Source: Lingula anatina
Taxonomy: Eukaryota > Animalia > Brachiopoda
Assembly: GCA_051362555.1 (NCBI GenBank)
Contig: CM120647.1
Coordinates: forward strand, 5,580,001 to 5,644,000
Direction: 5' to 3'
Length of the DNA stretch: 64,000 bases
Of the stretch, positions 375 through 60,165 are shown piece after piece. Positions within the stretch are counted from its first letter, which is position 1, and the number at the start of each line of letters is the position of its first letter. Under the pieces are notes generated by a model. It did not search any database and was not told the origin of the DNA. It saw only the letters and a list, made by a program, of their open reading frames with translations. The translations under genes were made by a program, and so were the position numbers.

Positions 375-3274
375 CGTTACCTCTTTTCTCCGCCTCTATG
401 TCAATGGCTTTGTCGTTTACCTTTTCAGCTCTATACCCTCTATACCCTATATAAAGAAATAATTGTTTAATAGTATCTTGCCCGTGACCAAAATAACAGC
501 AATGGCATATCTCCCCAAACTTTATTCACTTGAAAATATACCGCTTGTATTTTAAGATGTACCGAAGTCATATATACGTCTAATTATCTCACCAAACAAA
601 AACTATTTTCCAAATTAGAGCTTCAAACGAAAAAACAACAACAAAATAGTACCTGGTACAATAATTTTTGTCTGCATAGTCAAGAAGACAAGGCGGTTTA
701 AATGAATCATAATATACTTAGAACTATTTTTTCATCAGGCTTGCTATAAATTTCTCAGTTGGAAAGAGTTTTTTCTTCGTCTACTTACCGTACCTATACG
801 GATACCCTGAAAGAAAACATGTAGGTTGCAATTGAATGTGTTTTCTGTTACCATAATAAAAATGGCGATAATAAAAGCGTATGGTCACAGGATTTTTGAG
901 ATTGCATCGCCAACTTTGTCATCCAATGTATTTTAACAAATCAAATGTCTCTAAATGGCTCTTATTATTATTATTATTATTATTATTTTTTTTTTTTTTT
1001 TTTATTGTCAATAATATCAGAAATATCAATCATCATACAGCATTTCGTTAACATACATAAAATATATACAGTGGGAAATAAGCACAATGTGAGGAGGTCA
1101 CTGAAACACTTTACCCAACAAATTCCATCGTTCAGTATATTCTACATATTTTCCATTACTTATATATATGTATTTTTCCATTTCGAAATAGTTTTTTAGT
1201 TTATTTTGTAGACCTTGAAAATCTAATCTTTTTTCATTCATTCTTTTTCCATATATATAATACTTCGTTACCAGTATGAGTATATTAATGGCTGCACATT
1301 TTGTATCGTTTTTCAAAAACAATATATCTGCTAAAGAAAAATTAATATTCAAGAGTGCTTTCTCATTTATCAAGTTTTTTAAATCTTCCCATAACGGTTG
1401 AACCAAATCACAATAAAAGAACAAATGTTCAATGCTTTCATTTTCCTTTTCACAGAAAGAACACAATGAGCTATCTTTAACCTTAATTCTTTTAAGAAAT
1501 TCATTTGTTGCAATAATTCTATGTACTATTCTATATTGAAACCATATTAAAGTCGTATCTTTCGTAAAGTAGAATATATTTTTATTTATCATAGTCCAGT
1601 CTAAGTTTTCATCAATATTTATTTTCATCTCCCATTTAGCCTCAGTTGCCGGTTTACAATACGCATTACTAATCAATATGTCATATATTGACCGCGATCC
1701 CTTAGATTCTTTACAGATTATTTCTATAAATTTAGGTCTGTAGGGTAGCGCCAATTTGACGTTTTCTTCCCTTAGCTGTGGCCACCGTTGTGTAATTGCA
1801 GTCTTAACTCCGAGAAATAATGTAAATGGGCATTTAATGTCATACTGGGAACTAAATGATTCGAAAGAATGCGGTTTTCCACTATTTTCAAACAGGTCAT
1901 TTACTATATTTACACCCCTGTCATTCCAAGACTTAAAATAAATATCATTATTATCTACCCTCACCTCTGAACTATTCCATATAGGCTTTTTCAAAATATC
2001 TTTCAAATTATCTGAACTTGAGATATCTCTTTTAAACTCCGCGAGATAAAGAACGATTTCTTTCCAAAAATAATTGGTCATGTTTTCCGCGCACCTAACC
2101 AAGTATAAGTCTCCCCGATCAATAAGTCGATTTATATTAATATTTTGTGTATCTATCATAAGTCTAACCCAATCTGTGTCATTTTTTGTCATAAGTTTCC
2201 TTATCCAAGTTAATTTTAAGCTTTTTATAAACGTTTCTATGTCAATCATTCGACAGCCTCCACATTCTATTGGTTGAATAAGCACCTTCCTAGCTATCCT
2301 ATCCCTTTTATTTTTCCAAACAAATTTAAAAAGCGCGTTTTCCAATCTCTTTATCGTTTCATCTTTTGGTTTAGGTAAGGAAATAAATAAGTGAGTAAAT
2401 TTGGATAAAAGTAAAGTTTTCGTTACTGTAATTTTTCCCAAAGGGGTTAAATTTCTCCTATTCCAACACGTTATTTCCTTTTCAACTTCCAATAATCTAT
2501 CCGAGTAATTTAAGTCTTCAATATTATTATTATTTTAAAAAATTAAGAACCATCTTATTTATAGTATATTTTGATTAAATATATCTTTTAGTTTTTAATA
2601 ACTTTTATAATTTGGTTTTTATTTGAACTGTGTAATTTTAGTTTTATATACATATGTAAACAGCGCTGAGACGCTTGTGTGGTGCGGTTTTAAGAAATAG
2701 ATTATTATTATTATACAACTATTCATTTTAATAATATAAATTCACGTTCATGTGTTTGCCTATATGTTTCAATACTAAGTGTCTGCAGGTACTGTAGGTG
2801 TTATGTTTGGTCACCGTAATATCCGCCATATCTCTTTACTTCGTCTTCACCCTCACTGGCGGCGACTTCTTGGTCTTCTAGCACTGGAATTAAGCAAGTA
2901 TTTTATTACTCAAGAAAACTGTTAGATTGGAATCATTACCTAGATATTTAAAATCTGATTATTTTAGCAATATCTTAGATAACACACCGAAACTCATATA
3001 TATCAAAAGCCCACACACAAGTTCGCATAAAAAAGCGCAAATGCGGGTAGACACAATCACACTTATACCAAATCAAAAGATCAAACTAAAACGCAAATGT
3101 GCAAGCACACACACCCAAAATCAAGAATACCTAAAAAAAAAACCAAAGATACAAACTTAGACACACACACAAAACACACACACACACTGTTTTCTTACCT
3201 GTCTCTCCCAATACTCCTACATACATAATAACCAGCCCACAAACGAGGAAGAAAAGAAGAAGTGGATTCTTCAT
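375..3274 (-). CDS. Gene A (3'-partial): secreted Gly/Tyr/Arg-rich, KR-processed repeat peptide precursor; micro-exon gene
   Basis: Exons with GT/AG boundaries: 3199-3274 (MKNPLLLFFLVCGLVIMYVGVLGET, signal-peptide-like), 2815-2883 (VLEDQEVAASEGEDEVKRYGGYY), 789-806 (GYPYRY), 375-446 (GYRGYRAEKVNDKAIDIEAEKRGN). All introns are phase 1. Bases 1-300 match the gene C intron at ~22837-23150, so the gene continues left of the window. Confidence 0.8.
962..2530 (-). mobile_element. 5'-truncated L1/Tx1-clade non-LTR retrotransposon in intron 2 of gene A
   Basis: Absent at the paralogous sites (~11150, ~23815). Minus-strand AATAAA at ~1001-1006 is followed by poly(A) and (TAA)n. Both sides are flanked by TATTATTATT-type sequence consistent with a target-site duplication. 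Confidence 0.9.
1098..2522 (-). CDS. C-terminal part of LINE ORF2 (post-RT region plus zf-RVT CCHC zinc finger), 5'-truncated
   Basis: Uninterrupted frame IEDLNYSDRLLEVEKEITCWNRRNLTPLGKITV...FVWKNKRDRIARK...GGC...CSFCEKENESIEHLFFYC; these motifs are typical of L1/Tx1 ORF2 C-termini. No endonuclease or RT core is present. Confidence 0.88.
   Translation of the reverse strand: MEDLNYSDRLLEVEKEITCWNRRNLTPLGKITVTKTLLLSKFTHLFISLPKPKDETIKRLENALFKFVWKNKRDRIARKVLIQPIECGGCRMIDIETFIKSLKLTWIRKLMTKNDTDWVRLMIDTQNININRLIDRGDLYLVRCAENMTNYFWKEIVLYLAEFKRDISSSDNLKDILKKPIWNSSEVRVDNNDIYFKSWNDRGVNIVNDLFENSGKPHSFESFSSQYDIKCPFTLFLGVKTAITQRWPQLREENVKLALPYRPKFIEIICKESKGSRSIYDILISNAYCKPATEAKWEMKINIDENLDWTMINKNIFYFTKDTTLIWFQYRIVHRIIATNEFLKRIKVKDSSLCSFCEKENESIEHLFFYCDLVQPLWEDLKNLINEKALLNINFSLADILFLKNDTKCAAINILILVTKYYIYGKRMNEKRLDFQGLQNKLKNYFEMEKYIYISNGKYVEYTERWNLLGKVFQ
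2560..2712 (+). repeat. Old LINE/SINE-like 3' tail remnant ending in (ATT)n, copied with the gene array
   Basis: tgtaaacagcgctgagacgcttgtgtggtgcggttttaagaaatagattattatt resembles L2/CR1-type 3' ends. Related copies occur at ~9680-9820, ~11190-11330, ~20370-20500 and ~22100-22260. Confidence 0.4.
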
Positions 3275-3344
3275 AGCTAAATTGCGATCGGTTGTCGCCA
3301 CGTCTGTGATTTTACAAGCAGTGTCCGTTTATCGGTCAAAGTAA

Positions 3345-3397
3345 AATGAGCTGCTGGCTGATATTCGCGGCTTTTATATCATTTGGAGTCACGCCCA
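3345..3397 (-). promoter_or_regulatory. Core promoter of gene A: TATAAAA, Inr-like TCATTT and GGGCGTG (Sp/KLF-type) box
   Basis: TATAAAA at 3372-3378 lies 31 nt from the Inr-like A at 3347. GAGTCACGCCC at ~3386-3396 is conserved in B, C and D. Confidence 0.7.
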
Positions 3398-3443
3398 CCT
3401 CTCTGTCACAACTTTAATGAGAGTGTGGAGCTGGGCAATGACA

Positions 3444-6179: not shown

Positions 6180-6805
6180 CATTTACACTATATTGCTATT
6201 TATTGACTGTTTAACTGCTTGCTTTTCAGATATCGTTTGATAAGAAAACGAAGTTAGAGCATCAATTTAACAGTATAAGGATCATATTTTAAAACAAAAT
6301 GGATTGTTTTAATTCTACAAAAACGTTAATCACTTTATACTATTACTAATTGCGATCTAAAAGGATCGAAAACACCATCAAAACATGTCCAGTGACCAAA
6401 GCAGACTGTCTGGATGTCATGATTATAACTTCTGCTCTGTGGTGATATTAATGACCAATGAAGGTCGCATTACCCAAAGTTACTTCATTTCTTGTATTTA
6501 TATATATATCAGAAAAAGAGGGCTTCACTTTCCATTTTTATAAAACGACATGATGTACATTAATTACACGTTGCCCATGCCTACGATGGTCAGTTGTTTG
6601 TTCTTAGTAGTTCAAAATCTGTTTGCGATGAGATATGTTGAGAAAAGGACCAGTTGGATGAAAAATACGCAAATATGTTTATATTACACCAATCAAATCA
6701 CTGATTTTCTTTTCATCTCCGGCACGATCTTGTACCAATCCAGGTTGACTCTTGCAGGAAAGCGGAAGTCACGTGTTGGAAGGATAGTGTGCCCAGATGA
6801 TACAA
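6180..6805 (-). other. Non-coding last exon (3' UTR) of gene B with poly(A) signal
   Basis: Acceptor tttcgtctttcag|TTGTATCATCTGG at 6805 is conserved at 15553 (C), 27980 (D) and 40300 (E). AATAAA at 6199-6204 lies in a context conserved in all four genes. Confidence 0.65.
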
Positions 6806-7122
6806 CTGAAAGACGAAAGAGGAATAAATAAATAAATAAGTAAATAAATATAGATAAATTAACTGTTTTTGTCTGCAGGTCATTTTGCCAAACAGACAGT
6901 TAAGATTTAATAACTTTAACGTACATGTACAGGTGATGTGCACAAAGATTGGAATGAAAATATTTAAATTAATCTTTTCTTTCAGAGAGAGTTTATGGTA
7001 ATTCAACATCAACGCAACTTTCAGAGTAATATTTTATCTACGCAAGATCACATTTAGTCTGAATTGCATAATTTTACACAGTGACTTCATGCTATTTACG
7101 TACGTTCTTTACCTCTTTACCG

Positions 7123-10100
7123 TTAAAGATCCAGGAGTCTTTTAAGTAGGTTGATATTGGCATCTTCACCTGAAAGCAAAGTCATACAAAGTTATATTAA
7201 AATATCGAAGTAGGTATGCAGACACATAATTACTGAAGCGGCTTCTGTAAACTTAGATGATAAACGAAAGTCAGAAGTGTCCACCTGCCATAAAAACTGT
7301 TTGCAAATGAATTTTATCACTAATTCAAGTTTCTAACTATAAAAAAACTGTTCGCATGCGTGTGTTCTTACCGTAACCTCTTCGGTTCAGTTCGTCGTCG
7401 GTCTCACCGTCGAACACCCGCTGGGTTTTATACCCTGAAATGGGACGACAAAAATCAATGCAATGCTTTTTTCTGTTACAAATATGGGACCAAATATGGG
7501 TGCATTTTTAAGAATTAAAATACAGAAAGATACAGTTTCCATGCAGTTAATTTCCCATTGTGTATTTTTTCTATGTTTATTCATTATATCATTACTTTCC
7601 CCTAAGGCCCAAGTGTATGTGCCTGTGAGCTGTGATTGGTCAGTCGTCACATGTGTACATGTATGTTTGTGTGTTACCTCCGAAACGCCGTTTATCGTCG
7701 TTAATCCTCTGTGCTCTATACCCTGAAATTGAGCAGGCATAGTAATAATAATAATAATAATAATAATCGTTTTATTTCCTTGGAACTTTTCGATGATTGT
7801 GCATTTTCATAAAATAGAGGTTTTCTATATAAAAAATTACACGTTCGCATATAACCATTGCTTTTTTATTTTTCAATTGTTCTTTTTATGTTGTTTATAT
7901 TTTAATGCACATTTCGATATCACAGGTCGTCCTAGTATAACATGTTACAAAATTATGTTTGAACTGAGCAATAGCAACACTAATGGTCAGAAAATACTTT
8001 GAAGGCATTTTTGCTCGAATTTTCATTTCTTAATGCATCTGAATTCCAAATGCAAGCTTTAAAGTACATAGATTAAACTGCCATCGCAATGTCCTTCTGA
8101 ACCGTAGATCTTTGAAAGGTCCAAGACAAATATAATTGAGAGATATTTTCGTCTATATTATACAAGATTAGAGGCTACAATGTCAGATTGTATTACGAAT
8201 GTTTTTTCGGAAGGTGCGTATCTTGTTAATCTCAAGAAGGCAGTGGGTTCTAAATGATCGGCAACTAATTAATTTTTAAATAATTATTATTAAAAATTGT
8301 AAAAAAAAAAAAAAAACATCGACTTAACTGCACCAATAAAGAATTGAAAATTGCAGATACAGGTATTTGCTTTTTTCTAGAGAAAAAATCCGTTTTGGCG
8401 CGAAGAGCACGGTAACAAGGACCTCTTAAGGATACTTATAAATATAGCTCTTTGAGTGCTGATGTTGTTGTAGTTTCTGTTTGTATATGTGTTTTTATCC
8501 ATGCAAGTGTGCTTTTACTTTTACCTCTTTTTTCTGTTTCTATGTCGGTGGATTTGTCAGTTCCCTTTTCAGCTCTATACCCTCTATACCCTAAATAAAA
8601 ATGATAATTGTTTTGTAGTATCTTGCCCGGCACCAAATAACAACAATGGAATATCTCTCCAAACTTTATTCACTCGAAAGTATATCGTTTTTGTTTTAAG
8701 ATATACCAAAGACATATATTTCTTCGCCTAATCATCACACCAACCAAAAATTATTCTTCAAATCAGACCTTCACTAAAATAAACATAGCAAAAACAGTAA
8801 CTAGTTATTTTTCGCTGCAAAGACAAGAATACACCGCGGTTTAAATGAGTCGTAACACGGTAAGATTTTTTTCTTTAAAAATGCTACAAAACAGCTATCA
8901 CAAATGAGGGAACGGATGGAGCAATGATTTTTCAGCAGGACAATGCACTTTCTTCGTCTACTCACCGTGCCCATATCCTGAAACAAATAAGGAGGTTCCA
9001 AATTTATATTTCGTCTGTTATCATAATAAAAACGGCGATGGTCACAGGCCTTTTGAGACTTCAACACCAACTTTGTGATACAATTTAATTACCAAACTAA
9101 ATGTCTTTTAATGACTCTGACCTTTTTTTTAGATTAAAAATCTTTTTAAATCCGAGCAATTCAGTCTACCGAACATTTTAAAAAAGAACTCAAAACATAC
9201 CTTTTTAGGAAATAATTGGTTTTATAAATCTTGTATTAATTGCATTTAATCGTATGGATTAATGGCTGTTTTACCTAGATTTTATTTATAATATTTTATG
9301 TAGTATCATTTATGATATTTTATGTAAAGTCTACTGAACATTTAAAATGGATTTTAGACTTAAAATAAATTTATTATTATTATTTATTATTAATTTAAAG
9401 TTTATTTTCATCAACTGTATCCGGGAAATGATTTCTCAGTAGGAAAATGCACTTTCTTCGTCTACTTACGGTAACACCTTCGTCTACTTACCGTAATATC
9501 CTGAAACAAATAAGTAGGTTCCAAATTAATATTTTGGCTGTTACCATAATAAAAACGTGTGGTCACAGGATTTTTGAGACTTCAACACCAACTGTGTGAT
9601 CCGGTTTTATTACCAAACAAAACGTCTTTTAATGACTTTTAATGACCTTTTTTTAAATTGAAAACCTTTTAATTAAAAGTATATTTTGATCAATTGTATC
9701 CTTTAGTTTTTAATTACTTTTATAACTTAGTTTTTAATTCATCTGTGCAGTTTTAGTTTTATATACATGTACATATGCCGAGACGCATTTAAGAAATAAG
9801 TTATTATCGTTATTATTATAAAATCATTCATTTTGATTATATCTGTTCACGTTCATGTGCTTGTGTGTGTGTTTCGATGATTAATAACTGCAAATATTGT
9901 AGGTGTAATGTTTGGTCACCGTAAAATCTCTTCATTTTGTCTTTTTCATCACTGTCGTCGACGTCTTGGTCGTCTAAAACAGAAATTAAGCAAGCATTTT
10001 GCTATTCAAGAAACTGTTTGATAGACATCTTTACCCAAGTAATTTAATTCAGGAAAATTTTAAAGTAACAATTAGATAACGCACCTAACTTCATATATTT

Positions 10101-10487
10101 AATTAAGCCTAAAATATCATTTTTTTACTTACATAAATCTTTAACTATATTAAACGTTACTCTGTCCAACGGACATTTTCATTTGTCAAGTGGTCATTAA
10201 CAGAAATTAAAGACAAAAGACGGAAACGATATGGATGGGCCTTCATTACAATGACGTCATAAAGACAGACAACAATGCACTCCAACAGAATCCCACGCCT
10301 TTAAAGACATAACTGAAATACTTCACTTCATACTGCATCAAGATAAAACATCAACTTCTAGTGCACAGATTCATCGAACAAAAAAGAGACAGTACCAGAA
10401 ATTAGCTTTTTTTCTCGCGGAAAATTCGTTTTGATGCGAAGAGCAAGATCACAAAGATCTTATAAGGATACTTTTAAGTATAACTCT

Positions 10488-10531
<44 letters not shown>

Positions 10532-11974
10532 ATACATGCGTGCGTGCTCTTACCGTTACCTCTTTTCTCCGCCTCTATGTCAGTGGCTTTGTCGTTTACC
10601 TTTTCAGCTCTATACCCTCTATACCCTAGATAAAGAAATAATAATTGTTTAATAGTATCTTGCCCGTGACCAAAATAACAGCAATGGAATATCTCCCCAA
10701 ACTTTATTCACTTGAAAATATACCGTTTGTATTTTAAGATGTGCCAGAGTCATATATTCCTACGTCTAATTATCTCACCAAACAAAATCTATTTTCCAAA
10801 CCAGAGATTTAAACGAAAAAAACAACAACAAAATATTACCTGGTGTAATCACTTTTGTCTGCATAGTCAAGAAGTCAAGGCGGTTTAAATGAATCATAAT
10901 ATACTTAGAACTATTTTTTCATCAGGCTTGCTATAAATTTCTCAGTTGGAAAGAGTTTTTTCTTCGTCTACTTACCGTACCTATACGGATACCCTGAAAG
11001 AAAACATGTAGGTTGCAATTGAATGTGTTTTCTGTTACCATAATAAAAATGGCGATAATAAAAGCGTATGGTCACAGGATTTTTGAGATTGCAACGCCAA
11101 TTTTGTGATCCAATTTTATTAACAAATCAAATGTCTCTAAATGGCTCTCATTATTATTTTTAAAAAATTAAAAACCATCTTATTTATAGTATATTTTGAT
11201 TAAATATATCTTTTAGTTTTTAATAACTTTTATAATTTGTTTGTTTTTTATTTATGTTTTATATACATATGTAATCAGCGCTGAGACGCTTGTGTGGTGC
11301 GGTTTTAAGAAATAGATTATTATAATTATACAACTATTCATTTTAATAATATAAATTCACGTTCATGTGTTTGCCTATATGTTTCAATATTAAGTGTTTG
11401 CAGGTACTGTAGGTGTTACGTTTGGTCACCGTAATATCCGCCATATCTCTTTACTTCGTCTTCAGTCTCACTGGCGGCGACTTCTTGGTCTTCTAGCACT
11501 ATTATATTATATTATATTATATTATATTATATTATATTATATTATATTATATTATATTATATTATATTATATTATATTATATTATAATTAAGCAAGTATT
11601 TTATTATTCAAGAAAACTCAGATTGAAATCATTACCTAGATATTTAAAATCTGATTATTTTAGCAATATCTTAGATAACACACAGAAACTCATATATATT
11701 TAAGACCCCACACACGCTCACACAAACAAGCACAAATACGGGTAGACACAACCACACACATAACAAATCAAAAGATCAAAATAAAACGCAAATGTGCAAG
11801 CACACACATATACACACCCAAAATCAAGAATACCTAAAAACAAAACAAAGATACAAACTTAGACACACACACAAAACACACACACACTGTTTTCTTACCT
11901 CTCTCTCCCAATACTCCTACATGCATAATAACCAGCCCACAAACTAGGAAGAAAAGAAGAAGTGGATTCTTCAT
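7123..11974 (-). CDS. Gene B: secreted KR-processed Gly/Tyr/Arg-rich repeat peptide precursor (~178 aa, 11 coding exons)
   Basis: Exons: 11899-11974 (signal MKNPLLLFFLVCGLVIMHVGVLGER), 11430-11498, 10976-10993 (18 nt), 10554-10625, 9920-9973 (shifted acceptor), 9492-9500 (9 nt), 8966-8977 (12 nt), 8519-8590, 7678-7722, 7372-7434, 7123-7169 (GEDANINLLKRLLDL*). All internal exons are multiples of 3, phase 1-1, and join without a stop. Confidence 0.8.
11501..11586. repeat. (ATTAT)n pentanucleotide microsatellite at the exon-2 acceptor of gene B (also 24068-24126 in gene C)
   Basis: Directly visible; absent from gene A at 2884-2890. Confidence 0.95.
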
Positions 11975-12044
11975 AGCTAAATTCCGATCGGTTGTCGCCA
12001 CGTCTGTGATTTTACAAGCAGTGTCCGTTTATCGGTCAAAGTAA

Positions 12045-12098
12045 AATGAGCTGCTGGCAGATATTCGCGGCTATTATATCATTTGGGAGTCACGCCCA
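12045..12098 (-). promoter_or_regulatory. Core promoter of gene B (TATAATA variant, Inr-like, GGGCGTG)
   Basis: Aligns with the gene A promoter; TATA at 12072-12078 reads TATAATA. Confidence 0.6.
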
Positions 12099-14929: not shown

Positions 14930-15553
14930 TTACACTTTATTGCTATTTATTGAGTGTTTTATTGCTTGCTTTTCAGATATCGTTTGATAAGGAAACAAAG
15001 TTAGAGCATAAATTGAACAGTATAAGGATCATATTTTAAAACAAAATGGATTGTTTTAATTCTACAAAAAAGTTAATCACTTTATACTATTACTAATTGC
15101 GATCTAAAAGGATCGAAAACACCATCAAAACATGTCCAGTGACCAAAGCAGACTGTCTGGATGTCATGATTATAACTTCTGCTCTGTGGTGATATTAATG
15201 ACCAATGAAGGTCGCATTACCCAAAGTTACTTCATTTCTTGTATTTATATATATATCAGAAAAAGAGGGCTTCACTTTCCATTTTTATAAAACGACATGA
15301 TGTACATTAATTACACGTTGCCCATGCCTACGATGGTCAGTTGTTTGTTCTTAGTAGTTCAAAATCTGTTTGCGATGAGATATGTTGAGAAAAGGACCAG
15401 TTGGATGAAAAATACGCAAATATGTTTATATTACACCAATCAAATCACTGATTTTTTTTTTCATCTCCGGCACGATCTTGTACCAATCCAGGTTGACTCT
15501 TGCAGGAAAGCGGATGTCACGTGTTGGAAGGATAGTGTGCCCAGATGATACAA
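14930..15553 (-). other. Non-coding last exon (3' UTR) of gene C
   Basis: Conserved acceptor at 15553; AATAAA at 14946-14951. Confidence 0.62.
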
Positions 15554-16690: not shown

Positions 16691-16735
<45 letters not shown>

Positions 16736-19030: not shown

Positions 19031-19062
<32 letters not shown>

Positions 19063-19226: not shown

Positions 19227-19258
<32 letters not shown>

Positions 19259-21373: not shown

Positions 21374-21414
<41 letters not shown>

Positions 21415-23154: not shown

Positions 23155-23192
<38 letters not shown>

Positions 23193-34638: not shown

Positions 34639-34669
<31 letters not shown>

Positions 34670-41187: not shown

Positions 41188-41222
<35 letters not shown>

Positions 41223-47200: not shown

Positions 47201-48444
47201 TTCGGTCTACTACACTTGTCAGCATGCATACGGTTTCGTTGCACGTGAGCGTGCGTGTGTGTAACCTCTACCATTTTTTTTTCTCATTGTCTACGTCACT
47301 TTAAGACACCCACTGAACTTTCTGTCGAAAATGTAAACGCTACGGTAACGGTATTTTCAAGAAATAAGAAAGCTTAATTATGATCTCAATCTCTTAGTTT
47401 CTGCTTCTTGGTGCCTTTCCGCTTTTTTATGACTGTTAACATACCATTTTTGACTAATGTTGCAAACATCTAAACCGCCTTAACATCGACCATTATTATC
47501 ATATGGTATATTCACTATTATTACCAATCAATTTAACATTTTACTTTAGTGAACATCTGTACGTGCGAAAGACTGTTATTCATCACGTGTGTACATGTAT
47601 GTGTGCGTGTTACCTCTGTATCCACGTTTATCATCATTAACCCGCTGGGCTCTATATCCTGTAAAAAAAACAAGAATCAAGATTTCTGTTAAAAGAAAAC
47701 GTTTGATCAACTACGCGTGCCACCTTGCACAGGGTATATTGATGCGTGTTTGCATGTTATATCTACCTTTCACAGCTTAATACCGTAAAATCTAATAAAG
47801 GCATGATGACTGAGTCTCCCAGCCAGTTGTTGTCTCTTCACTTTTTTTTCTCCATGATTCTATATGTATCTATACGTTTAAATATTCCGCTTTATAGTGT
47901 CAGTGTGTACATGTGTGTGTGTGTGTGTGTGTGCGTGTGTGTGCGTAGTGGCGCCTGGTTATTGATAATGGGTGTACAGGTATGTGTGCGTGTTACCTCC
48001 GTGGGGTCGTAGGTTTTGTATCTCCTCGTCTTCTATGTTGCTGTCTTCCGCGTCAGCCTTACTAACCCAGTAACTTCCTAAAACAGAGATTGGAGTGTGT
48101 GTGTGTATGTGTGTGTATGTGTGTGTGTGTGTCTTATATTGGTCACTTCGTTATTCGCTGATAACACGCTGAACTCCATTCTAAGAAAACGCAGAAGAAT
48201 ATATTTCATTTTATTCTCCGTTGTTTCAACATTTGTCTTAGAAGTGAATGTTTGATGGAGCACGCGAATCAGCATGTAAATGGGGGTAAATGTTTTCTTT
48301 GCACGTGGGCATGCGTGCATCTTACCTCTTCCTCGTTTCTCCTCGTCTTCTAAGCCACTGTCTTCGTCGTTCACCTGGGTGCCTGCATAGGAGGCTGAAA
48401 CACAGATATGTTATTATTATTATTACCTCTGCCATGCAGGTCAC

Positions 48445-48487
<43 letters not shown>

Positions 48488-49269
48488 TTTTATTTTTCTA
48501 TTAATTTAATTTATTTATTTACTTATTTATTTATTTTTTGGTTCCGTTAGTCTCTTTATTAATTTGTCTGTCTATTGGCAAAATTGTGCAGAAAATTTAT
48601 GGATGAATTTGATATTCCGCTTTAGTGTAGTGTCAGTGAGTGTGTGTGCGTGATATAGCGATTGGTTAATGGTTATTTCAGTACATGACTACGTACTTTT
48701 ACGACCTGGAGGCCCTTCAGGTAAGTTTCGTTTTTCCTCGTCGTCTACGCCAATGTCTTTGTCGTTAACCTGCGTACCCGCATAGGAGGCTGAAACAGAG
48801 ATACCAGCATGTTATTATAAGAGAGAGCGCAGGTCTTAGCTGTAAGAAATTACAGACCATTAACAACGTATATACATGTACCTGGAAGTACTTTCAAGGA
48901 AGATAGCAATATATGAAAACTACAAAACAACATTCAATCCATTTCGGCAAATGATCCGAACTGTATGATCAAACGCATGTGTCAGCATACATGTGGGTGT
49001 ATATGTTTGCTGTGCATGTTACCTTTTCCTCGCTTTTCCTCATCATCTACGTCACTGTCATCCGCTCGTCCACGTTTCGCTGAAAGCGTACAAAAATATA
49101 ATTATTTCATGTTTTGTCAGCTACCGGAATGTCAACATTTTATTTTCAAGCATAAGACACATGTTACTATATTTTTAAAATATTAGAATTTTGTTTGGTA
49201 GAATTTTCACTGTGTGTGTTTGCACTGTTTGAAAACCAAGGCATATTTTCACAATAAAGTTCAATTGAG

Positions 49270-49343
<74 letters not shown>

Positions 49344-52300
49344 CACACAGACACACACTGCGTGTGTTTGATTATCCTAATTTGCTCACTTCTCATCCAC
49401 CTGGTCATAAATCTTCTAAACCTTATCCCCCCAAACCCGGCGAGTGAATAACTTTTATATTTTGTTTACTTCAAAATTCTAACAATACCGAAATCCATGA
49501 TATACAGACATCTGTAATATGACACCCCTCTGCAGGGCTTACTCGCCTTAAGTATTCCACCTTAATGAGCGCATTCAGCACAGCGGATCAAATATGGCTC
49601 CCCCTAAAAAGCTTGCCGCTTAATACCCACGGGTGTTTGGGTGTCTGTTTGAGCTTGTTCTCCACTGTGAGTGGTTATTTGTTTATTTGTTATATACATA
49701 CATGTTTGTGAAAGTGTTACGTTCGTAAGCTCGACTATTGTCGTTAACCCGATGAGTTGGACGACCTATAATAAAAGCAAGAAAGTCTTCTGGAAAAGTT
49801 CAAAAGTGGTGAATTTTTGTAAATGGCAGTTTTGTCTAGAAAAATACCCATTACCAAATAATTATTCAGCGTCCTTTATCTGGGGAAGGCATTTCCACAG
49901 CGGATCATTTCTCAAAAACTGAATGTACATGTATATTTGTGTTTTACCTGGAGTCCCTCGTTTATCGTCGTTAACTTGCTTACCTGGATAAGAACCTAAA
50001 AAGAAACAAATATGCCTTATACAATTGGACTGGTGCTCTTTTTGTTGATGGCTAGGTCAACATAGCGTCTGGAGAAGTTTTATGGTTGCTGATAATGCAA
50101 CAATTGCTGCACAATTCAGTGCAAAAACTGTTTATTTTCATGAACATCTATTCGAGCGTGTTACCTCTTAAGCAATTTAAAACTTGTTTTACACCTATTT
50201 TTAAATAGTTAGGGCACGGTGAGCCATTATAAACTCATACTCTTTTCCTATATATCTAAGTCAATTTAATATTTTGATCAAGTGTCTATCTGTATGTTTG
50301 CGTAAAAACCTTTTAGTCCTCGTTTACTGTCGTCAATCCGCTTGCCTGCATAATACTCTGAAACGAAAGAAAAAGATTTCCTACACTGGTGCATTTTTTA
50401 TAGATAACGATGTCTTCCAACTAAAATACCAACATTAATACGATTTAGCCTTCTATATGTGTTTGCGACTGTGAACAATCGTTTGCCATGTGTGTACATG
50501 TATGTGTGCGTTTTACCTTGGTCCCCTCGCTTATCGTCGTTAACCCGCTTCCCTGAATAAACCCCTGAAATGAAACAAGAATGTTATTTCACAAATTTCA
50601 ACAGTTGGTGCATTTTCGGTGATCGCCAGACCAACAAGTGAGTGGTTTTATGAATTTTTATCTGCAAATTGTAATACACGGATGCATTTTTCTAGATTTC
50701 ATCGTCTTACAGAAACAAACTAAAAAATGTGACTATATACTCTGAAATGAAACAAGAATTTTTTTTCTGCAAAATTCCATGCACTGGTGCATTTTCATTC
50801 TTTTTCTTACACAAACAAACTAGCAAACAAATGATGATTTATCGTTCTATATGTGTCCTCGGCTGTAAGCAATCATTTGTCAGGTGTGTACATGTATGTG
50901 TGCGTGTTACCTGGGGCCCCTCGTTTATCGTCGTTAACCCGCTTGCCTGAATATACCCCTGAAAGACATAAGAATGTCATCTGCAAATTTCCTACACTGG
51001 TGCATTTTCGTTGAGAGCCAGACCAGCCAAGGATCTGGAGAGATTTTATATTCGCTGATGATGCAACACCAGCAATGCAATTCAGTTCAACAACTACTTT
51101 TTCTCATAAATATCTATGTGAGCATGTTACCTCCATATCAGTTTGAAGTTTTTGTTGGCCTCCACATTAGAAAAGTAATTTTATTACAAAAATATGGATG
51201 ATTCAAAAAAGAAATGTACGGTGACGCTGAGGAGAACGACCTAAAATGGAGAGTCGTCAACTCCTGAAAAGGAACCAGACTTTTTCATTTTCATATTTTC
51301 TTTACTTCCATTATTCTAAATAATTTCCTTACATAAAGCACATCATATGTACAGTACGCTTGTACCGGTGAAGAATTCATATATTTCCCTTTACCTGCTT
51401 AATATTCGCATCGAATAATTGTTTGTGTATGTGTGTATGCTACCACAATTACCTCGTTTATCGTCGTTAACCCGATAGGCTTCATAACCTGAAATGGAAA
51501 AAGAGGCTCTGTCTGTTACAGACACTTCAACAGTGGTTAATTTATTAAAGACTGGTGCTTCTGACTGCAAATATATACGGTGGGTCTAGAGTAACATTCC
51601 TTTTTTCTTTCTTAGTAGTATTTTTTACGTCCATAGTTACCATGGCCTCTTTTCTTCTCATCTACTCCGCTGTATTCATCGTCAACCTCTTCAACTTGAT
51701 ATCCTGAAATCGAACGAGAATAATTCATTTTCACATTTTCTTTCCTTCCATAATCAAGACAATCTCGCTGAGCTTTATACCGTAAAATTGAACAAGGATA
51801 AAATGATTTAGTGTTCTTGTCTGCTACAAATAATTTAAAAGAGGCGGATTTTCACCGATCGGAGTTGCTATAGAATTATACGGGGCACCGTAAGCATCTT
51901 ATAAGATAAATATTTTTCCAAACTGCGGTGCAAATGTTCGGTCTACTACACTTGTCAGCATGCATACGGTTTCGTTGCACGTGAGTGTGCGTGCGTGTAA
52001 CCTCTACCATGTTTCTTCTCATTGTCTACGTCACTGTAAGACACCCACTGAACTTTCTGTCGAAAATGTAAACGCTACGGTAACGGTATTTTCAAGAAAT
52101 AAGAAAGCTTAATTATGATCTCAATCTCTTAGTTTCTGCTCCTTGGTGCCTTTCCGCTTTTTATAACTGTTAATATACCATTTTTGACTAATGTTGCAAA
52201 CATCTAAACCGCCTTAACATCGACCATTATTATCCTATGGTATATTCACTATTATTACCAATCAATTTAACATTTAACTTTAGTGAACATCTGTACGTGC

Positions 52301-52808
52301 GAAAGACTGTTATTCATCACGTGTGTACATGTATGTGTGCGTGTTACCTCTGTATCCACGTTTATCATCATTAACCCGCTGGGCTCTATATCCTGTAAAA
52401 AAACAAAAATCAAGATTTCTGTAAGAAGAAAATGTTTGATCAACTACGCGTGCCACCATGCACAGGGTATATTGTTGCGTGTTTGCATGTTATATCTACC
52501 TTTCACAGCTTAATACCGTAAAATCTAATAAAGGCATGATGACTGAGTCTCCCAGCCAGTTGTCGTCTCTTCACTTTTTTTCTCGATTATTCTATATGTA
52601 TCTATACGTTTAAATATTCCGCTTTATAGTGTCAGTGTGTACATGTGTGTGTGTGTGTGCGTGGTGGCGCCTGGTTATTGATAATGGGTGTACATGTATG
52701 TGTGCGTGTTACCTCCGTGGGGTCGTAGGTTTTGTATCTCCTCGTCTTCTATGTTGCTGTCTTCCGCGTCAGCCTTACTAACCCAGTAACTTCCTAAGAC
52801 AGAGATTG

Positions 52809-52845
<37 letters not shown>

Positions 52846-53376
52846 TGTCTTATATTGGTCACTTCGTTATTCATCACGTGTGTACATGTATGTGTGCGTG
52901 TTACCTCTGTATCCACGTTTATCATCATTAACCCGCTGGGCTCTATATCCTGTAAAAAAAACAAGAATCAAGATTTCTGTTAAAAGAAAATGTTTGATCA
53001 ACTACGCGTGCCACCATGCACATGGTATATTGATGCGTGTTTGAATGTTATATCTACCTTTCACAGCTTAATACCGTAAAATCTAATAAAGGCATGATGA
53101 CTGAGTCTCCCAGCCAGTTGTCGTCTCTTCACTTTTTTCTCGATGATTCTATATGTATCTATACGTTTAAATATTCCGCTTTATAGTGTCAGTGTGTAAC
53201 ATGTGTGTGTGTGTGCGTAGTGGCGCCTGGTTATTGATAATGGGTGTACATGTATGTGTGCGTGTTACCTCCGTGGGGTCGTAGGTTTTGTATCTCCTCG
53301 TCTTCTATGTTGCTGTCTTCCGCGTCAGCCTTACTAACCCAGTAACTTCCTAAAACAGAGATTGGAGTGTGTGTGT

Positions 53377-53410
<34 letters not shown>

Positions 53411-53722
53411 CTTATATTGGTCACTTCGTTATTCGCTGATAACACGCTGAACTCCATTCTAAGAAAACGCAGTAGAATATATTTCAATTTATTCTCCGTT
53501 GTTTCAACATTTGTCTTAGAAGTGAATGTTTGATGGAGCACGCGAATCAGCATGTATGTGGGTGTAAATGTTTTCTTTGCACGTGGGCATGCGTGCATCT
53601 TACCTCTTCCTCGTTTCTCCTCGTCTTCTAAGCCACTGTCTTCGTCGTTCACCTGGGTGCCTGCAAAGGAGGCTGAAACACAGATATGTTATTATTATTA
53701 TTACCTCTGCCATGCAGGTCAC

Positions 53723-53765
<43 letters not shown>

Positions 53766-54621
53766 TCTTTAATTTTTATTTATTTATTTATTTTATTTTA
53801 TTTTTCTATTAATTTAATTTATTTATTTACTTATTTATTTATTTTTTGGTTCCGTTAGTCTCTTTATTAATTTGTCTGTCTATTGGCAAAATTGTGCAGA
53901 AAATTTATGGATGAATTTGATATTCTGCTTTAGTGTAGTGTCAGTGAGTGTGTGTGCGTGATATAGCGATTGGTTAATGATTATTTCAGTACATGACTAC
54001 GTACTTTTACGACCTGGAGGCCCTTCAGGTAAGTTTCGTTTTTCCTCGTCGTCTACGCCAATGTCTTTGTCGTTAACCTGCGTACCCGCATAGGAGGCTG
54101 AAACAGAGATAACAGTATGAAATTATAAGAGAGAGCGCAGGCCTTAGCCAAGGATTTTACCTGTAAGAAATTGCAGGCAACGGACATCGCATGTGCTGCC
54201 TGGAAGTACTTTCAAGAGAGATATCAATGTATAAAAACTACAAAACAACATTTAATTCAATTTGGCAAATGATCCAAACTGTATGATCAAACGCATGTGT
54301 CAGCATACATGTGGGTGTATGTTTGCTGTGCATATGGGCATGCGTGCATTTTACCTTTTCCTCGCTTTTCCTCGTCATCTACGTCACTGTCATCTGCTCC
54401 CCCACGTTTTGCTGAAAGCGTGCAAAAATATAATTATTTTACCTGTTTTGTCCGCTACCGGAATGTCAACAATTTTTTTAAAATTCATTTTCAAGCATAA
54501 GACACATGTTACTATGTTTTTAAAATATTAGAATTTTGTTGGGCAGAATTTTCAGTGTGTGTGTGTGTTTGCACTGTTTGAAAACCAAGGCATATTTTCA
54601 CAATAAATTTCAATTAAGAAA

Positions 54622-54670
<49 letters not shown>

Positions 54671-57600
54671 GTCACACACACACACACACTGTGTGTGTTT
54701 GATTATCATAATTTGCTCACTTCTCATCCTGCTGGTCACAAATCTTCTAAACCTTATCCCCCCAAACCCGGCGAGTCAATAACTTTTATATTTTGATTAC
54801 TTCCAAAATCCGTACAATACTGAAATCCATGATAACAGACACCTGTAATATGACACCCCTCTGCAGGGCTTACTCACCTCAAGTATTCCACCTTAATGAG
54901 CGCATTCAGAACATCGGATCAAATATGGCTCCCCCTAAAAAGCTTGCCGCTTAATACCCGATTAGACTTAATACTGTATAGATTCCCCAGGATAATGCAA
55001 CCAGTTTTCTAGTGGGTCGGCCATATTTGATCCGCGGATCTATTAGTCCGCTGTTCTGAATGCAGTCAATGTCAGTGTGTATATTTGCATGATACATACA
55101 CATGTATGTGTGCGTGTATATTTACGTGATACAGGTATGTGTGCGTGTTACTTCAGTTACCTGGTGTAGCGCTGTTAGCACCTGGATGTGTTGCACCTGT
55201 AATACAACGAGAATTTAATTTAGTGTTATCTCTAGCGAATCAAAGTCCCCATTTAGAAAAGGGGATCCGGGTTCGAACTGATCCGCCAACTAAATATGGC
55301 AGACCACACTTCAAAAGAGATGCCTCTGATTCCTGATGGTCTCCCCGCCTCTACACGCGCCATTAAACGGATTAAATCTCAGCTTTAAGGTTTAATTTCT
55401 AGGCCCCTGCAGCGACGACGCGCGTGGAGGCTGGTAGACCATCGAGAATCAGCGGCATCTCTTCTGAAGTGTGGTCGGCCATATTTAGTCGGCGGATCAG
55501 TTAGTACACGGATCATTTATTTTGAATGTGGCCAATATTTAGATGAGAAACGAATGTTCTATTAACTACAGATATCAAAATGCACGCAGGTGTATGTTAG
55601 AGCGACACGCGTGTATGCGTACATATTATCTCTACCCGACATACGCTTGTAAAGCTTAAAACAGTGAACTTCTTCAATAGGGACATAGTGACTTAGTTTG
55701 CCTGTCCGCTACGATTCGTTTATCATTTTCGATGATTTTGCATACGGCTATCTACTAGTAGGCTGTTCTGGCATACATCGCTCTGATGAGAGTGTATATT
55801 CTCACGCAAAACATGATTCTGCGTGTAAATAAATTTTTTAGATAATTTATTAATATTAAAGAGAATTGACCTCCCTTTGCGGAGGTCTGCTCTCTTTGAG
55901 TGTTTCTTTATTATAGTGGTTATTATATAGTATGAACTATTTTGTTTCGTGTAAGTTTTTTCTTACCGTTTTCTTTCGTGCCGAAGTCCACTTACACTTC
56001 ACTTTGCTTAACTTTGCATCGTACTGTTATATATGTAAAGGCATATGTCTGTTTTACTAATAGCATGCATGGGGTGATTGTTTGCGTTGCCAAAAAATGG
56101 CAGTTCACTTTAATTTAGAAATGACGCTGCAGTCTATTGGGGGTTGAAGTTTTCAAACACGTGTGCAAGTGCATATCTATACATAAATAAGCTGTGTCTG
56201 TGTGCGTGCATGCGCGAGAGCGGGCGCGCGCGTGTGTGTGTGCGTGGTTATCACGACCTGCTCGTTTTTCCTTACCGTGTTCACCACTCAAAATGTAGGT
56301 AACAACCATTGCACGACCATCAGGAAGGGTTACTGAAACGTAAAAAAGAAAAATTCTACTAACGTGCTTAAGCCCACTTTACACTGGACGGCATCCTTTC
56401 TGAGTCCCGTAGTACAGCCACGTTTGAGAGTAAAAAAAATAATAATCTTTACATGCCGAAAACTGGCCAATCATTGAGCATTCATTCTAAAACCAAAGCG
56501 ATGCTTGTGCCTCCTTTCTACGACCACAGCGATGCCAGTTTCATGGTCACACAAAGGACGCAGAAAGGAGGCCGTCCAATGTAAAGGGGGTTTTACAAAT
56601 CGTTCCTTCCTATGATTTAAGAAGTGCATAGGAATGTATGGTCTTTCCCTGCGGAGGTTAAAAAACCAGGCTTTTGATTGTAAAGGAACGTTTGGTCTGG
56701 TTACCTGCTTAAAGCAGTGTTGCGATTACAGAGGGCCTTGCAAAAGGCCTTTTGGTGGCAATCTACCCCTCATTTTCTACAGAACGGGTCGTTCTGTAGA
56801 GTTGCAGCATAATTTTTTTTTTTAATTTTTTAAAAATCAAAAAAAAAAAAACAAGAACAGTTGGTCCTTGTTTCTGGTGGTAAGTTGTGGATGTCATGTG
56901 CGTGGCATCTGCACAACTACCAGTCTGGGAATACTCCTGCAAGACTGCGCCGTTCTTTTCTTGTGACACAATAATCTGTCTGGCAATGTCTATCTGATTC
57001 GAGCCATTCTAGCACAGAGTAACAGTACTCTGGCACAGAATTTCCTCTCATTTCATGACCCGTAGAAGTGGCACCTTGTATGCAAAATTTCAAAGTCTTC
57101 TGTGCAGACGCTTCCGAATATGGAAAGATTTTGTGACAGAACCACCCTTTGTCACAGTTATGCTAAGACCAAACCAAAAAGAGAACTACCCTATGGAATC
57201 ATCGCATACTACAAAATGCCGTAGTGTAAGACAGTTGTTTAATTGATCCTAACACACCTGGGCTCCGTATCTCGAAAGGTTCGCTATGTTGCGCACGTGT
57301 GCGAGTGTCTCGATTCCATAACCGATTCTATTTCGAGATACGGGGCCATGGCATCGAGACACTTTAGCACGTGCGCAACATAGCGAACCTTTCGAGATAC
57401 GGAGCCCTGGCTACACATTTCCTTATCCGCATCTCTCACATGAGAAGGTTCTTTTTTAAAATAATACATTTTACCTAGACATACCTTATAATCTGAAATA
57501 ATTTATATTAATTGTCAAGTCTGTATTAAAGAAGTAAAAATGATGAAAAATTCAGGTTCACCTAACGTCACACCATGGACGATATTATTGATTCTATAAT

Positions 57601-59962
57601 TACTCTTATTGTTCTTTGCACCTATCTTGTTAACCATTGGTCGCATTCAAAACAGATGATCCGCGGACTTGCGTTGGTCTACAATCCATATAAAATGTTC
57701 AGTAGACTTTACATGGGGCTCACCGCCTCCACACGCACTAATGAACAGATTAAATGACGGTTCCGAGGTTTAATTGCAAGGCCCCTGCAGGGACGGTGTG
57801 TGCGGAGGCGTGGAGACCATCAGGTGAGCAGCTTCCTTTTAACTGGGTCGGCCATATTTGATCCGTGGATCTGTAGGTCCGGGGACTATCTGTTCGGAAT
57901 GCAACCATTAAATCCACTTAAACAGTTATGTGAGCGTCTTACCTCTATAGCTTCCCGGCGGGTCGTCCATGACACCGGATTTGCGATCAAGGCCACTGCG
58001 TTTGTCGCCAAGCTGTTGGTCGTCCATGACACCAGATTTGCGGTCAATGCCACTGCGCCTGTCGTCAAGATGCTCGACTGAGTACGTCGAAAACACAAAA
58101 GGACGGTGCATTAGTACGTTATGTTGGAGATAAGGTAGTGTAGCCAAAGGCATATAATATTTATTACTGCTTTGAGTATGAGGCTCTTTCTCAAAACGTC
58201 TCAAGTTTTTTTGCCAAAACTAAATTGCTAATGTCGTATAGCCGACTACAATCAACCTCTAACACGAAATTCATGCGTTAGCACTTCTGTTTACGGTTAC
58301 TGATTAACAGCAATTCAAGCGCATAACTATACACATACTAAACGCCACTACCCCACTTCTGAACCCACGAGTCTTACACCTATCGTACTGGATTTAAAAA
58401 AACTTAAATTTAAGTGTGTTAAAAATCAAAGAAGGTTTACTGAGGGTTTACGTACTAAATTTGTAAAATCCAAGCAATTATAATATCTGGTGACAAACTG
58501 GCGAATAACCTGTTTTTAATTTATTAAAAAAACGCTAAATTACTTGCTAAGACACTAAAAAAAATTGACTGAGCGTCTAACTGACTGACAGGCAAGATAA
58601 CTGAAAATACATCATTGAAATTAAATAATGAATAAGGGCGCATTCCCATAGATTTTAGATCGATCTATCCCCGTGGGGAGTCTCACTAGATTACTGTCAG
58701 ACAATCCGGCTTAAATCTCCGTCCCGCCTACTACAAGCTGTAAGGGGGTAATTAACTTTCGTGCCCGCCCGGCTGACAGCTATTTAGCGTGAACCCCCAG
58801 GGAGTTACGTCGATCTAGTTGGATCAATGTAATCACTGGGAATGAGGTCTAAGTCAGAGGCTTACCTTTTTCTTCCACACCTGCGGTTACGGCAGAGTTA
58901 CCTGAAATGTAAAAAAAATAGTTTTCATTCATAAGTCAATCGTCTCTACACGTATGTCCATTATTAAAGGGATAATAACTCTTCGTTTCGGCCAAAAAAT
59001 GAATTTTCCTGGAGTAAACAACAATTTTCCCATACTTACCAATGGTTAATGAATCCATTTTTACATTCAAAGTTAGTCCCTGGTTTTTTCTAAAAAGTTT
59101 GGTTTTTAGTTAAAATCTCTTAAGGTATAGCCTTCAATGGAGGTCACGTGGTCTAAAGACAAGCTCAGATATCAGAATAATAGCTATAACTGCTGTTTTT
59201 GTGGTAAAACAGAATATATTATATTTCTATGAGTTATTCACAATGTTTTTATTGTGAAATATAGATCTCATACGAAGAGTTATTATCCCTTTAATTTATT
59301 CTTTTGCTGTTGTCAGCTAAGTATAAAGTTATACTGTATGTGTTTGAAAATTTCCCAAAGTCATATTTTCTTTGCCTAAATTTTCTGCACGGCGACTTAT
59401 CTTTCCCCATTCAAACCTCAAAGTCTATTTTTAAAAACCCTCTAATAAAAGTGCTTGACGTGGAATTTTCCTTCTGAATGATAAGTCGTTCTAAATGAAT
59501 GGCTAGACATTTAGAACTGAGTAATTAAATCCGGCTAGAATAAAACATCGAATAAATAGGGACGGGCAATGGTTCGTAAATAGGAGAAATTGTTTTGTTT
59601 TTTTTCTTCCTATACGAACATTCAATTTGGCGAGTAAATCCCACATAGAGGGTACCTTTAAAGTATTTTACGGCTTTAGTGAGATATGAAACTTTCTGAA
59701 GTTTGCCTCTCCACTGTTGATGCGTCATTATGGACCTTCAACAGCTGTCCCCAAGCGTCTTTCCTTAGCATACGGACCAGGGCCCCGTTACTCGAAAGCA
59801 TCGCGAATTGCGACCCAGCGCAAGCGTCTCCATTCTATAACTCGCCCATACTCGCACCATACAATACACTGTAGCCTCTATGTGATATCGCTTTTTGCAA
59901 TACGCGATGCTTTCGAGTTACGGGACCCTGCTCTCTTTCTGTCTCTTCTATTTCTCCCTCAC

Positions 59963-60001
<39 letters not shown>

Positions 60002-60081
60002 AATAAATTACCTGAATTCACAAGTATCCCCAAGACAACAGCTCCGCAAGCTAAAGCGACGAACAAATACAGGTCCTTCAT
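40682..60081 (-). CDS. Gene E: large secreted multi-peptide precursor (~37 coding exons, roughly 700-735 aa if all are included)
   Basis: Signal exon 60012-60081 (MKDLYLFVALACGAVVLGILVNS). Phase-1 symmetric exons at 58866-58901, 57943-58077, 56276-56332, 55161-55196, 54355-54411, 54011-54097, 53604-53672, 53269-53349, 52905-52949, 52713-52793, 52348-52392, 51641-51703, 51444-51488, 50911-50958, 50517-50564, 50310-50357, 49948-49995, 49721-49765, 49023-49079, 48703-48789, 48326-48394, 47997-48077, 47614-47658, 46901-46963, 46704-46748, 46171-46218, 45778-45825, 45570-45617, 45208-45255, 43253-43300, 42806-42883, 42121-42201, 41783-41827, 41244-41318, 41031-41066. Last coding exon 40682-40743 (VEDANINLLKRLIDLQRRKK*). 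The motif RVNDDKRG recurs. Some boundaries are ambiguous. Confidence 0.75.
41951..42990. repeat. Tandem duplication (~685-bp offset) of one exon-intron block in gene E
   Basis: 41951-42300 is nearly identical to 42636-42990; both contain GYRGA(A)KVNDEDSGI(D/N)DEEKRLST(T/S)YRG. Confidence 0.85.
43706..44563 (-). pseudogene. Decayed repeat exons (pseudo-exons) within gene E
   Basis: 44516-44563 has acceptor TG instead of AG; 43923-~43967 has acceptor AA (possible in-frame cryptic CAG); ~43706-43750 has both splice sites lost. Coding similarity to the GKRVNDDKRG exons is still obvious. Confidence 0.6.
45100..54960. repeat. ~4.74-kb tandem duplication of an 11-exon block within gene E, with a nested ~556-bp two-exon duplication (~52316-53430)
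   Basis: Constant 4740-bp offset, e.g. 45208/49948, 46171/50911, 46901/51641; introns are nearly identical. Confidence 0.9.
55244..55533. mobile_element. Palindromic MITE-like element (related copy ~57642-57904)
   Basis: gatccgccaactaaatatggcagaccacacttca...tgaagtgtggtcggccatatttagtcggcggatc inverted arms. Confidence 0.65.
57258..57410. mobile_element. Near-perfect hairpin MITE (CTG-flanked, Harbinger-like)
   Basis: gggctccgtatctcgaaaggttcgctatgttgcgcacgtg...cacgtgcgcaacatagcgaacctttcgagatacggagccc. Confidence 0.75.
58636..58849. mobile_element. PIF/Harbinger-like MITE, TAA TSD
   Basis: Same family as 22361-22575; TAA on both sides. Confidence 0.75.
59778..59930. mobile_element. Hairpin MITE in intron 1 of gene E
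   Basis: cagggccccgttactcgaaagcatcgcgaattgc...gcaatacgcgatgctttcgagttacgggaccctg inverted arms. Confidence 0.7.
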
Positions 60082-60124
60082 TATTTTTTTCACCCGCTTG
60101 TTAACAAAACCGAGTTACAAAAAG

Positions 60125-60165
60125 AAAATACGCTGCCCGAATGACAAACAAGGTTTTATACCTCC
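60125..60165 (-). promoter_or_regulatory. TATA box of gene E
   Basis: TATAAAA at 60154-60160, about 75 nt upstream of the ATG at 60081, similar to the paralogues. Confidence 0.6.

Follow-up and report, generated by a model that had tools for sequence, protein, structure and literature searches.

What is made by a cluster of genes that are built from long runs of small, frame-preserving exons, most of which encode an acidic stretch and a dibasic pair? This question is raised by a 64,000-nucleotide stretch of the Lingula anatina genome (Brachiopoda; assembly GCA_051362555.1, contig CM120647.1, positions 5,580,001 to 5,644,000 of the forward strand), hereafter the window and numbered from its first letter, which holds five minus-strand paralogues, termed genes A to E. 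The five-gene cluster structure is real, and its sequence supports a putative family of secreted precursors, specific to the lineage, that convertases would process into multiple peptides. Our tentative, leading explanation is that a single exon cassette was duplicated within a tandem five-gene family, and that the Tyr/Gly/Arg-rich peptides cut from its products by convertases tan or glue an extracellular structure, which is probably chitinous.

The minus strand of the window was read throughout, and exon borders were picked with the reading frame in view. The window is AT-rich (GC 0.31–0.43 per 2 kb) and contains GT–AG introns, microsatellites, many small inverted-repeat elements and a fragment of a long interspersed nuclear element (LINE); TACATGTA is present in 28 copies, against 2.2 expected. 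Genes B to E are complete, with open frames of 176, 230, 336 and 739 residues, respectively, and A is truncated at the window edge after 78 residues. Start codons were placed at 3274 (A), 11974 (B), 24519 (C), 34899 (D) and 60081 (E). Gene A, of which only the 5′ part is present (375..3396), was modelled from sequence with exons 3274–3199, 2883–2815, 806–789 and 446–375. Gene B (6199..12097) comprises a signal exon (11974–11899), nine internal exons (11498–11430, 10993–10976, 10625–10554, 9973–9920, 9500–9492, 8977–8966, 8590–8525, 7722–7678 and 7434–7372), a stop exon (7169–7113), an untranslated-region (UTR) exon from 6805 and an AATAAA at 6204. Gene C (14946..24642) has one three-exon block more than B, with its signal exon at 24519–24444, 12 internal exons (24065–23997 to 18903–18841), a stop exon at 15917–15861 and a UTR exon from 15553. 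In gene D (27504..35009), the signal exon (34899–34830) is followed by 14 internal exons (34242–34216 to 29383–29315), mostly of one 54–84-nt unit with a repeat period of 300–400 nt, the stop exon (28425–28363) and a UTR exon from 27980. Gene E (39605..60160) is the largest, with a signal exon (60081–60012), 36 internal exons (58901–58866 to 41066–41031), a stop exon (40743–40681) and a UTR exon from 40300; an internal block of ~5 kb is duplicated (about 54900–49800 and 49600–45100).

The first exons of all five genes align, and each encodes a hydrophobic N-terminus and ends in phase 1. Their maximal 11-residue Kyte–Doolittle values are 2.8–3.3, compared with at most 1.25 elsewhere, the signal peptide being judged by hydropathy only. 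Common to genes B to E are a Leu-rich exon that bears the stop codon, a final exon that is non-coding and an AATAAA located ~600–700 nt further on. Models, alignment and hydropathy thus bear out a preliminary description of the window, made by a model from the letters alone, which had proposed five minus-strand paralogues with signal-peptide exons and a C-terminal exon and 3′ UTR common to B–E. The same description had assigned a TATA-type promoter to every gene: the box is intact in A (3380), D and E (60160), B has TATAAT in its place, and the box of C is broken. Genes A to D, unlike E, carry at 3396, 12097, 24642 and 35009, respectively, a conserved 11-nt motif built around TGACTC, which we take to be AP-1-like, located 16–17 nt ahead of the TATA position. 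Within the shared last coding exon, a CAA-to-TAA change in B (7113–7169) and C (15861–15917) ends the frame five or six residues before that of D and E, and this earlier stop removes the basic tail.

Internal exons number 74 (A, 3; B, 9; C, 12; D, 14; E, 36), and all are multiples of three, in phase 1-1 and bounded by GT/AG, in line with the more than 70 reported earlier. They span 9–135 nt with a median of 57 nt; 15/74 measure at most 36 nt, 32/74 at most 51 nt and 70/74 at most 81 nt. Micro-exons of the micro-exon genes (MEGs) are defined by a cut-off of 36 nt, and at this median size the earlier "micro-exon" label is overstated. The final nucleotide is G in 72/74 exons and the first is G in 53/74, and the junction codons are for this reason mostly Gly. 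An acidic residue occurs within six positions ahead of KR or RR in 57/74 internal exons, as had been claimed for most of them. Because the borders of the models had been chosen with the frame in view, a frame-blind scan that relied on generic splice signals alone was made inside the genes, with the plus strand, the reversed sequence and the complement as controls. Lengths were divisible by three in 40/53 candidates (p = 4e-10) and, once near-identical copies had been merged, in 21/27 (p = 3e-6), compared with 5/15, 3/13 and 6/14 in the respective controls.

Certain splice sites of the models are weak. Donors of this kind are GTGACC (six exons), GTTTTT (two) and GTCGTA (two), and the pyrimidine tract of the exon-2 acceptor is replaced by an (ATAAT)n microsatellite in B (11500–11586) and C (24067–24122), not in A. 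The GTGACC donor ends six related exons of A–C (at 2815, 11430, 9920, 23997, 22593 and 20601), where read-through would reach a stop after ~4–30 codons and give short one-peptide isoforms.

In the predicted precursors, the signal peptide is followed by an alternation of Asp/Glu-rich spacers ending in KR or RR with basic segments rich in Tyr, Gly and Arg. Dividing the two by a rough pattern, the basic segments contain 11–36% Tyr, 22–28% Gly and 18–22% Arg + Lys, and those of D and E are mostly 6–15 residues long; Asp + Glu account for 33–41% of the spacers of B–E, and Cys is confined to the signal peptide. Dibasic pairs are strongly ordered, with 67 KR, 21 RR, 5 KK and 4 RK in total, and with 29 KR against 3 RK among the 36 distinct exon types. 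This KR:RK ordering of 67:4 is what would be expected of convertase sites rather than mere charge pairs. At the spacer-to-peptide sites, the next residue is Gly in 35/52 cases. Processing into peptides is well supported as a prediction.

The charges are nearly balanced in most of the precursors, with a net value of −3 to −6 in B–D and −20 in E; in gene D, the basic segments sum to +29 against −32 for the spacers. The dibasic sites that enter a spacer differ in that Val or Ile comes next in 12/14. Prohormone convertases disfavour Val and Ile after the cut site, and the products may thus be two-block peptides, mostly of 10–50 residues and neutral to negative. If only the upstream sites were cut, the two-block products would be mostly neutral or acidic, a poor fit to cationic antimicrobials.

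Sequence comparison of the copies suggests that this coding layout is maintained. Genes A, B and C, including their flanks, are 92–96% identical across several kilobases, and the block copies of gene E are 90–97% identical. Exons diverged less than their aligned flanks in 9/10 paralogue comparisons. Pooling the five recent pairs of the ten, a choice that limits overlap (omitting the B/C promoter, B/C exons 3–4, B/D last exon, D/E last exon and B/D promoter) gave 28/1171 differences in exons against 325/7419 in flanks (p = 9e-4). The pooled ratio of nonsynonymous to synonymous differences per site (pN/pS) was 0.60 (p = 0.014; seven sets, with multiple hits and shared ancestry uncorrected), and indels were multiples of three in 8/10 cases in exons (12 exon pairs) versus 11/28 in introns (11 intron pairs). 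Three gene D units (29497..31323) have lost the acceptor AG to TG at 31323, 30605 and 29559, where a new AG, in frame and 9 nt further 3′, would restore splicing, and a similar case was found in gene E at 43958. At least six decayed exon copies are present in gene E (43700..52075; near 52057, 51781, 47320, 47041, 44558 and 43748), with a lost AG or GT, a stop or a frameshift. Divergence, pN/pS, indels and acceptor replacements together point to selection on both coding and splicing at a locus where exon turnover is ongoing. By these measures, the exons are under mild purifying selection, and a single locus displays exon birth, exon death and splice-site rescue.

Of nine RNA runs listed under the species label, eight from three studies (all but X6) were used, with the tissue not known; 6–30% of each was read, four runs over 40200–60190 and the other four over 14800–34790. 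The genes are off or nearly off in the sampled RNA, and their splice junctions are predicted ones. Depth was high on transposons only, and bins containing just exons and ordinary introns reached 0–0.5; the UTR exon of D had a depth of 0 in four runs, and that of C reached 0.45 in one run. Over the gene D array, X2/X3 gave nine non-zero values in bins from 29474 to 34142 (depth 0.03–0.31), in which the first mate was always on the plus strand, as is expected of minus-strand RNA in a stranded library, although this concerns a handful of reads. Over gene E, the X1 reads were of mixed strand. Near-zero depth in the eight runs fits expression in a restricted gland or stage.

Most of the RNA reads of the window fall on elements resembling miniature inverted-repeat transposable elements (MITE-like), families of 150–300-nt inverted repeats located at 22366–22576, 28560–28770 and 58641–58852, and at 20820–20987, 28858–29167 and 55247–55531. 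A non-coding DNA transposon of 2.7 kb (15935–18653), presumably Academ-like by its end pattern, has long terminal inverted repeats starting with TAGT and a 3-bp TAT target duplication. It sits 17 nt ahead of the acceptor of the gene C stop exon and is absent from B, and its relatives are transcribed. The 3′ part of a non-long-terminal-repeat retrotransposon, the LINE fragment (about 975–2534, minus strand), was inserted in an AAT run of intron 2 of gene A and is also absent from B. It retains a poly(A) tail and a 478-codon open frame with a zf-RVT domain (E 2.6e-9), and a search with the fragment returned 42 matches at 28–48% identity.

For the genes themselves, homology queries were single exons of 20–47 residues or exon profiles rather than spliced proteins, so the sensitivity to distant relatives is low. 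At this scope, the 30-exon profile search retained 0/7985 candidates at E ≤ 0.01, ESM Atlas searches gave no usable match, searches of the PDB and Rfam each gave 0 matches, and metagenome scans gave 0 matches, with 0/596 confirmed. No Pfam family scored below E 0.08 among the 21 of 30 exon peptides scanned (best E 0.084). The lone match among 1.84 billion representatives (E 6e-4), a 2303-residue Thr/Ser/His repeat protein, was rejected as compositional and had no matched stretch. The exon-4 profile retained 8/7998 candidates, four of them TPR-repeat, nuclease-like or hypothetical proteins and others with kelch-type domains; all were dropped as short local matches. No report of these peptides was found in the literature that was accessible, mostly outside subscription journals and without supplements, and the available text of papers on Lottia shell, chiton radula and abalone mantle, apart from supplementary shell, radula and byssus protein lists, contained no matching protein. 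The family thus appears to be new and undescribed in the sources searched, although exon-per-peptide precursors are already known as a kind. The protein, profile and metagenome searches with exons returned no relative, and the idea of a lineage-specific, secreted and processed family is favoured by the signal exons, the KR:RK ordering, the Gly preference, the mild purifying selection and this lack of a homologue.

How the cluster relates to known systems was assessed from the available parts of the cited papers. In honeybee apidaecin, there is one peptide per exon and the exon number varies (PMC1847501), which resembles the peptide unit per exon found here, where 57/74 exons carry an acidic spacer and KR/RR. 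However, apidaecin is described there as one locus with 4–11 Pro-rich units of 28 residues, compared with five genes, 74 exons and Gly/Tyr/Arg-rich units; the peptides here straddle exon borders, no sequence match was found, and Pro is outside the eight commonest residues of the precursors. In mussel myticalins, a Lys-Arg site separates a cationic Pro/Arg/Tyr-rich peptide from an anionic region, and the signal peptide, the multigene family, pseudogenes and a phase-1 intron are further common features (PMC5577615). According to the same source, they differ in having a single peptide per three-exon gene, the order cationic–KR–anionic, gill expression and another signal consensus; the cluster encodes polyproteins in the order anionic–KR–cationic, with neither the myticalin signal nor its single peptide. 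The Caenorhabditis elegans nlp-29 cluster, considered together with the caenacins, is likewise a young tandem array of genes for secreted Gly/Tyr-rich antimicrobials, but comprises small genes within 12 kb, and long exon arrays with acidic spacers are unreported in the text available (PMC2453101). The schistosome MEGs evoked in the preliminary description also combine a signal peptide with a run of small symmetric exons, a size range of 3–81 nt including 70/74 of those here; they are said to appear flatworm-restricted and are defined with alternative splicing (PMC4350168; bioRxiv 2023.06.21.545858), whereas the present cluster has short introns, and its exons are duplicated copies of repeat units that bear KR sites. 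The analogy is thus architectural only and not the nearest, apidaecin and the myticalins being closer. As for materials, sandcastle-worm glue consists of polycationic and polyanionic proteins cured through 3,4-dihydroxyphenylalanine (DOPA), and GYG motifs occur in a Nereis jaw protein (PMC9999432). The combination of polycation, polyanion, Gly/Tyr motifs and DOPA curing is the action proposed here, except that in the sandcastle-worm cement, made of Pc-1 to Pc-5, the opposite charges reside on separate proteins, while here they would derive from one cleavable precursor. Tyr/Gly-rich cationic segments, typical of DOPA-cured adhesive and tanning proteins, are present in the cluster.

A further lead comes from the non-repeat N-terminal region of gene E, in which exons 3–5 (58077–57943, 56332–56276 and 55196–55161, minus strand), once spliced, encode residues at 6/9 positions of the Rebers–Riddiford (R&R) consensus, taken as printed in the available text of bioRxiv 2020.01.08.899344. 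As in CPR proteins (PF00379) and squid beak CBPs, the core G-x8-G-x6-Y is present with exact spacing, accompanied by E-x-G and, past a one-residue insertion, the final Pro. Six positions were attained by 0/2000 shuffles of the N-terminal region and 26/2000 of the whole protein, and genes A–D reach only 3–4/9. Because the core runs across the junction of exons 3 and 4, it lends support to this junction. We regard this partial motif as a lead and not as family membership; it would be at most a relic.

Five features incline us towards the matrix role: the content of Tyr and Gly, the balance of charges, products that are probably two-block peptides, the R&R-like motif and a restricted expression. 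The analogy with the sandcastle-worm glue and Nereis jaw protein, as described in the available text (PMC9999432), favours it too. The layout, exon symmetry, KR bias, composition and selection on exons are observed in the window, and the mechanism is our proposal. The signal peptide would direct the precursors to secretory granules, perhaps aided by the conserved Leu-rich C-terminal exon, and the Asp/Glu spacers would offset the charge of the basic Tyr-rich segments while the precursor is stored. Cuts at the spacer KR sites would free basic and acidic peptides, or two-block peptides where the downstream K/R-Val sites stay uncut; opposite charges would then condense the material, and oxidation of Tyr to DOPA or dityrosine would cross-link it. 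The phase 1-1 symmetry would allow exons to be gained, lost or skipped with the frame intact. A more specific version, which we consider unlikely, is a one-gene, two-component system for gluing or tanning, with a cassette of Tyr-rich polycation and Asp-rich polyanion that would be cut to give a coacervate curing on chitin by Tyr oxidation, a recipe tuned by exon gain, loss and skipping, and descent from a chitin-binding cuticle-type protein that left its relic in E.

Several observations weigh against the matrix role. The R&R-like match was spotted post hoc and in one gene only, neither the aromatic triad nor the invariant G-F/Y of the ~64-residue consensus in the available text of PMC2259329 is present in the E model, and a Pfam scan of exon 4 alone matched no family. 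Eight G-K/R-R amidation-type sites, a trait of signalling peptides, occur in E and none in A–D. Exon conservation is reversed in the last coding exon of B/D (12.3% vs 6.1% in the flank), and pN/pS is uneven (A/B 1.34, C triplets 1.78, E blocks 0.14). None of the 15 RNA junctions listed per four-run set falls at a modelled splice site, all lying in repeats; a further 48 and 42 weaker joints exist in the two sets, and short exons can escape mapping. The RNA mapping put forward as a check has thus yielded only trace reads in the eight runs, with none of the listed junctions matching the models. Finally, the nearest architectural precedents (apidaecin, PMC1847501; myticalins, PMC5577615; nlp-29, PMC2453101) are, in the text available, all antimicrobial.

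Given these precedents, the main rival, which we hold to be doubtful, is a library of Gly/Tyr/Arg-rich cationic peptides with antimicrobial action, masked by acidic spacers until secretion. It agrees with the gain and decay of exons and with those pN/pS values that exceed 1. On the other hand, most basic segments of D and E have just 6–15 residues, the sites at which the acidic tail would be removed mostly carry Val or Ile at P1′, the position after the cut, the R&R-like motif is left unexplained, and expression is near zero in eight runs whose tissue and challenge state are not known. It is improbable that the genes encode neuropeptide or pheromone precursors, of which E would release short amidated Tyr-Ser/Tyr-Ala peptides acting on receptors. 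Their signal peptide, acidic spacers and KR sites form the classic prohormone layout, and the amidation-type sites of E agree with it, but such sites are missing from A–D, no C-terminal motif is common across the peptides, exon turnover is fast and leaves decayed copies, and protein searches gave no match. Neuropeptide families are usually conserved. Of the four functions listed in the preliminary description (defence, adhesion or sclerotisation, pheromone and neuro/endocrine), composition, charge balance and the R&R-like motif speak for sclerotisation or adhesion rather than the neuro/endocrine option.

Two explanations dispense with peptide release or with function. The precursors could remain uncut and, like Pif80, serve as disordered matrix proteins of alternating charge that attach to mineral and chitin, an idea to which we give little credence. 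As near-neutral block polyampholytes with spacers of 33–41% Asp + Glu in B–E, and with the R&R-like motif in E, they recall Pif, which, according to the available text, unites chitin-binding and mineral-binding parts (PMC11291548). Yet a role of charge alone needs no Lys-then-Arg order, and both the KR:RK ratio of 67:4 and the Gly after 35/52 spacer-to-peptide sites speak against it. It is very unlikely that the cluster is wholly or partly silent or decaying, or that A, B and C include allelic copies tandemised by the assembly. Trace or no RNA, units that are 92–96% identical, the LINE in A, the early stop in B and C, and the broken TATA box of C with its transposon 17 nt ahead of an acceptor would be explained in this way. 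Nonetheless, exons are better conserved than flanks even in the youngest pairs, indels are multiples of three in 8/10 cases in exons against 11/28 in introns, lost acceptors have in-frame replacements, and a single diploid could not supply, as alleles, three copies that each carry different insertions.

The window holds five genes and dozens of predicted peptides that were overlooked by annotation based on open reading frames and are unmatched in the protein libraries searched. If the defence reading is true, a further animal lineage would have a peptide library of the apidaecin kind. If the matrix role is true, the cluster would represent a new way to build an underwater adhesive or hardening material that is stored and then triggered by a protease.

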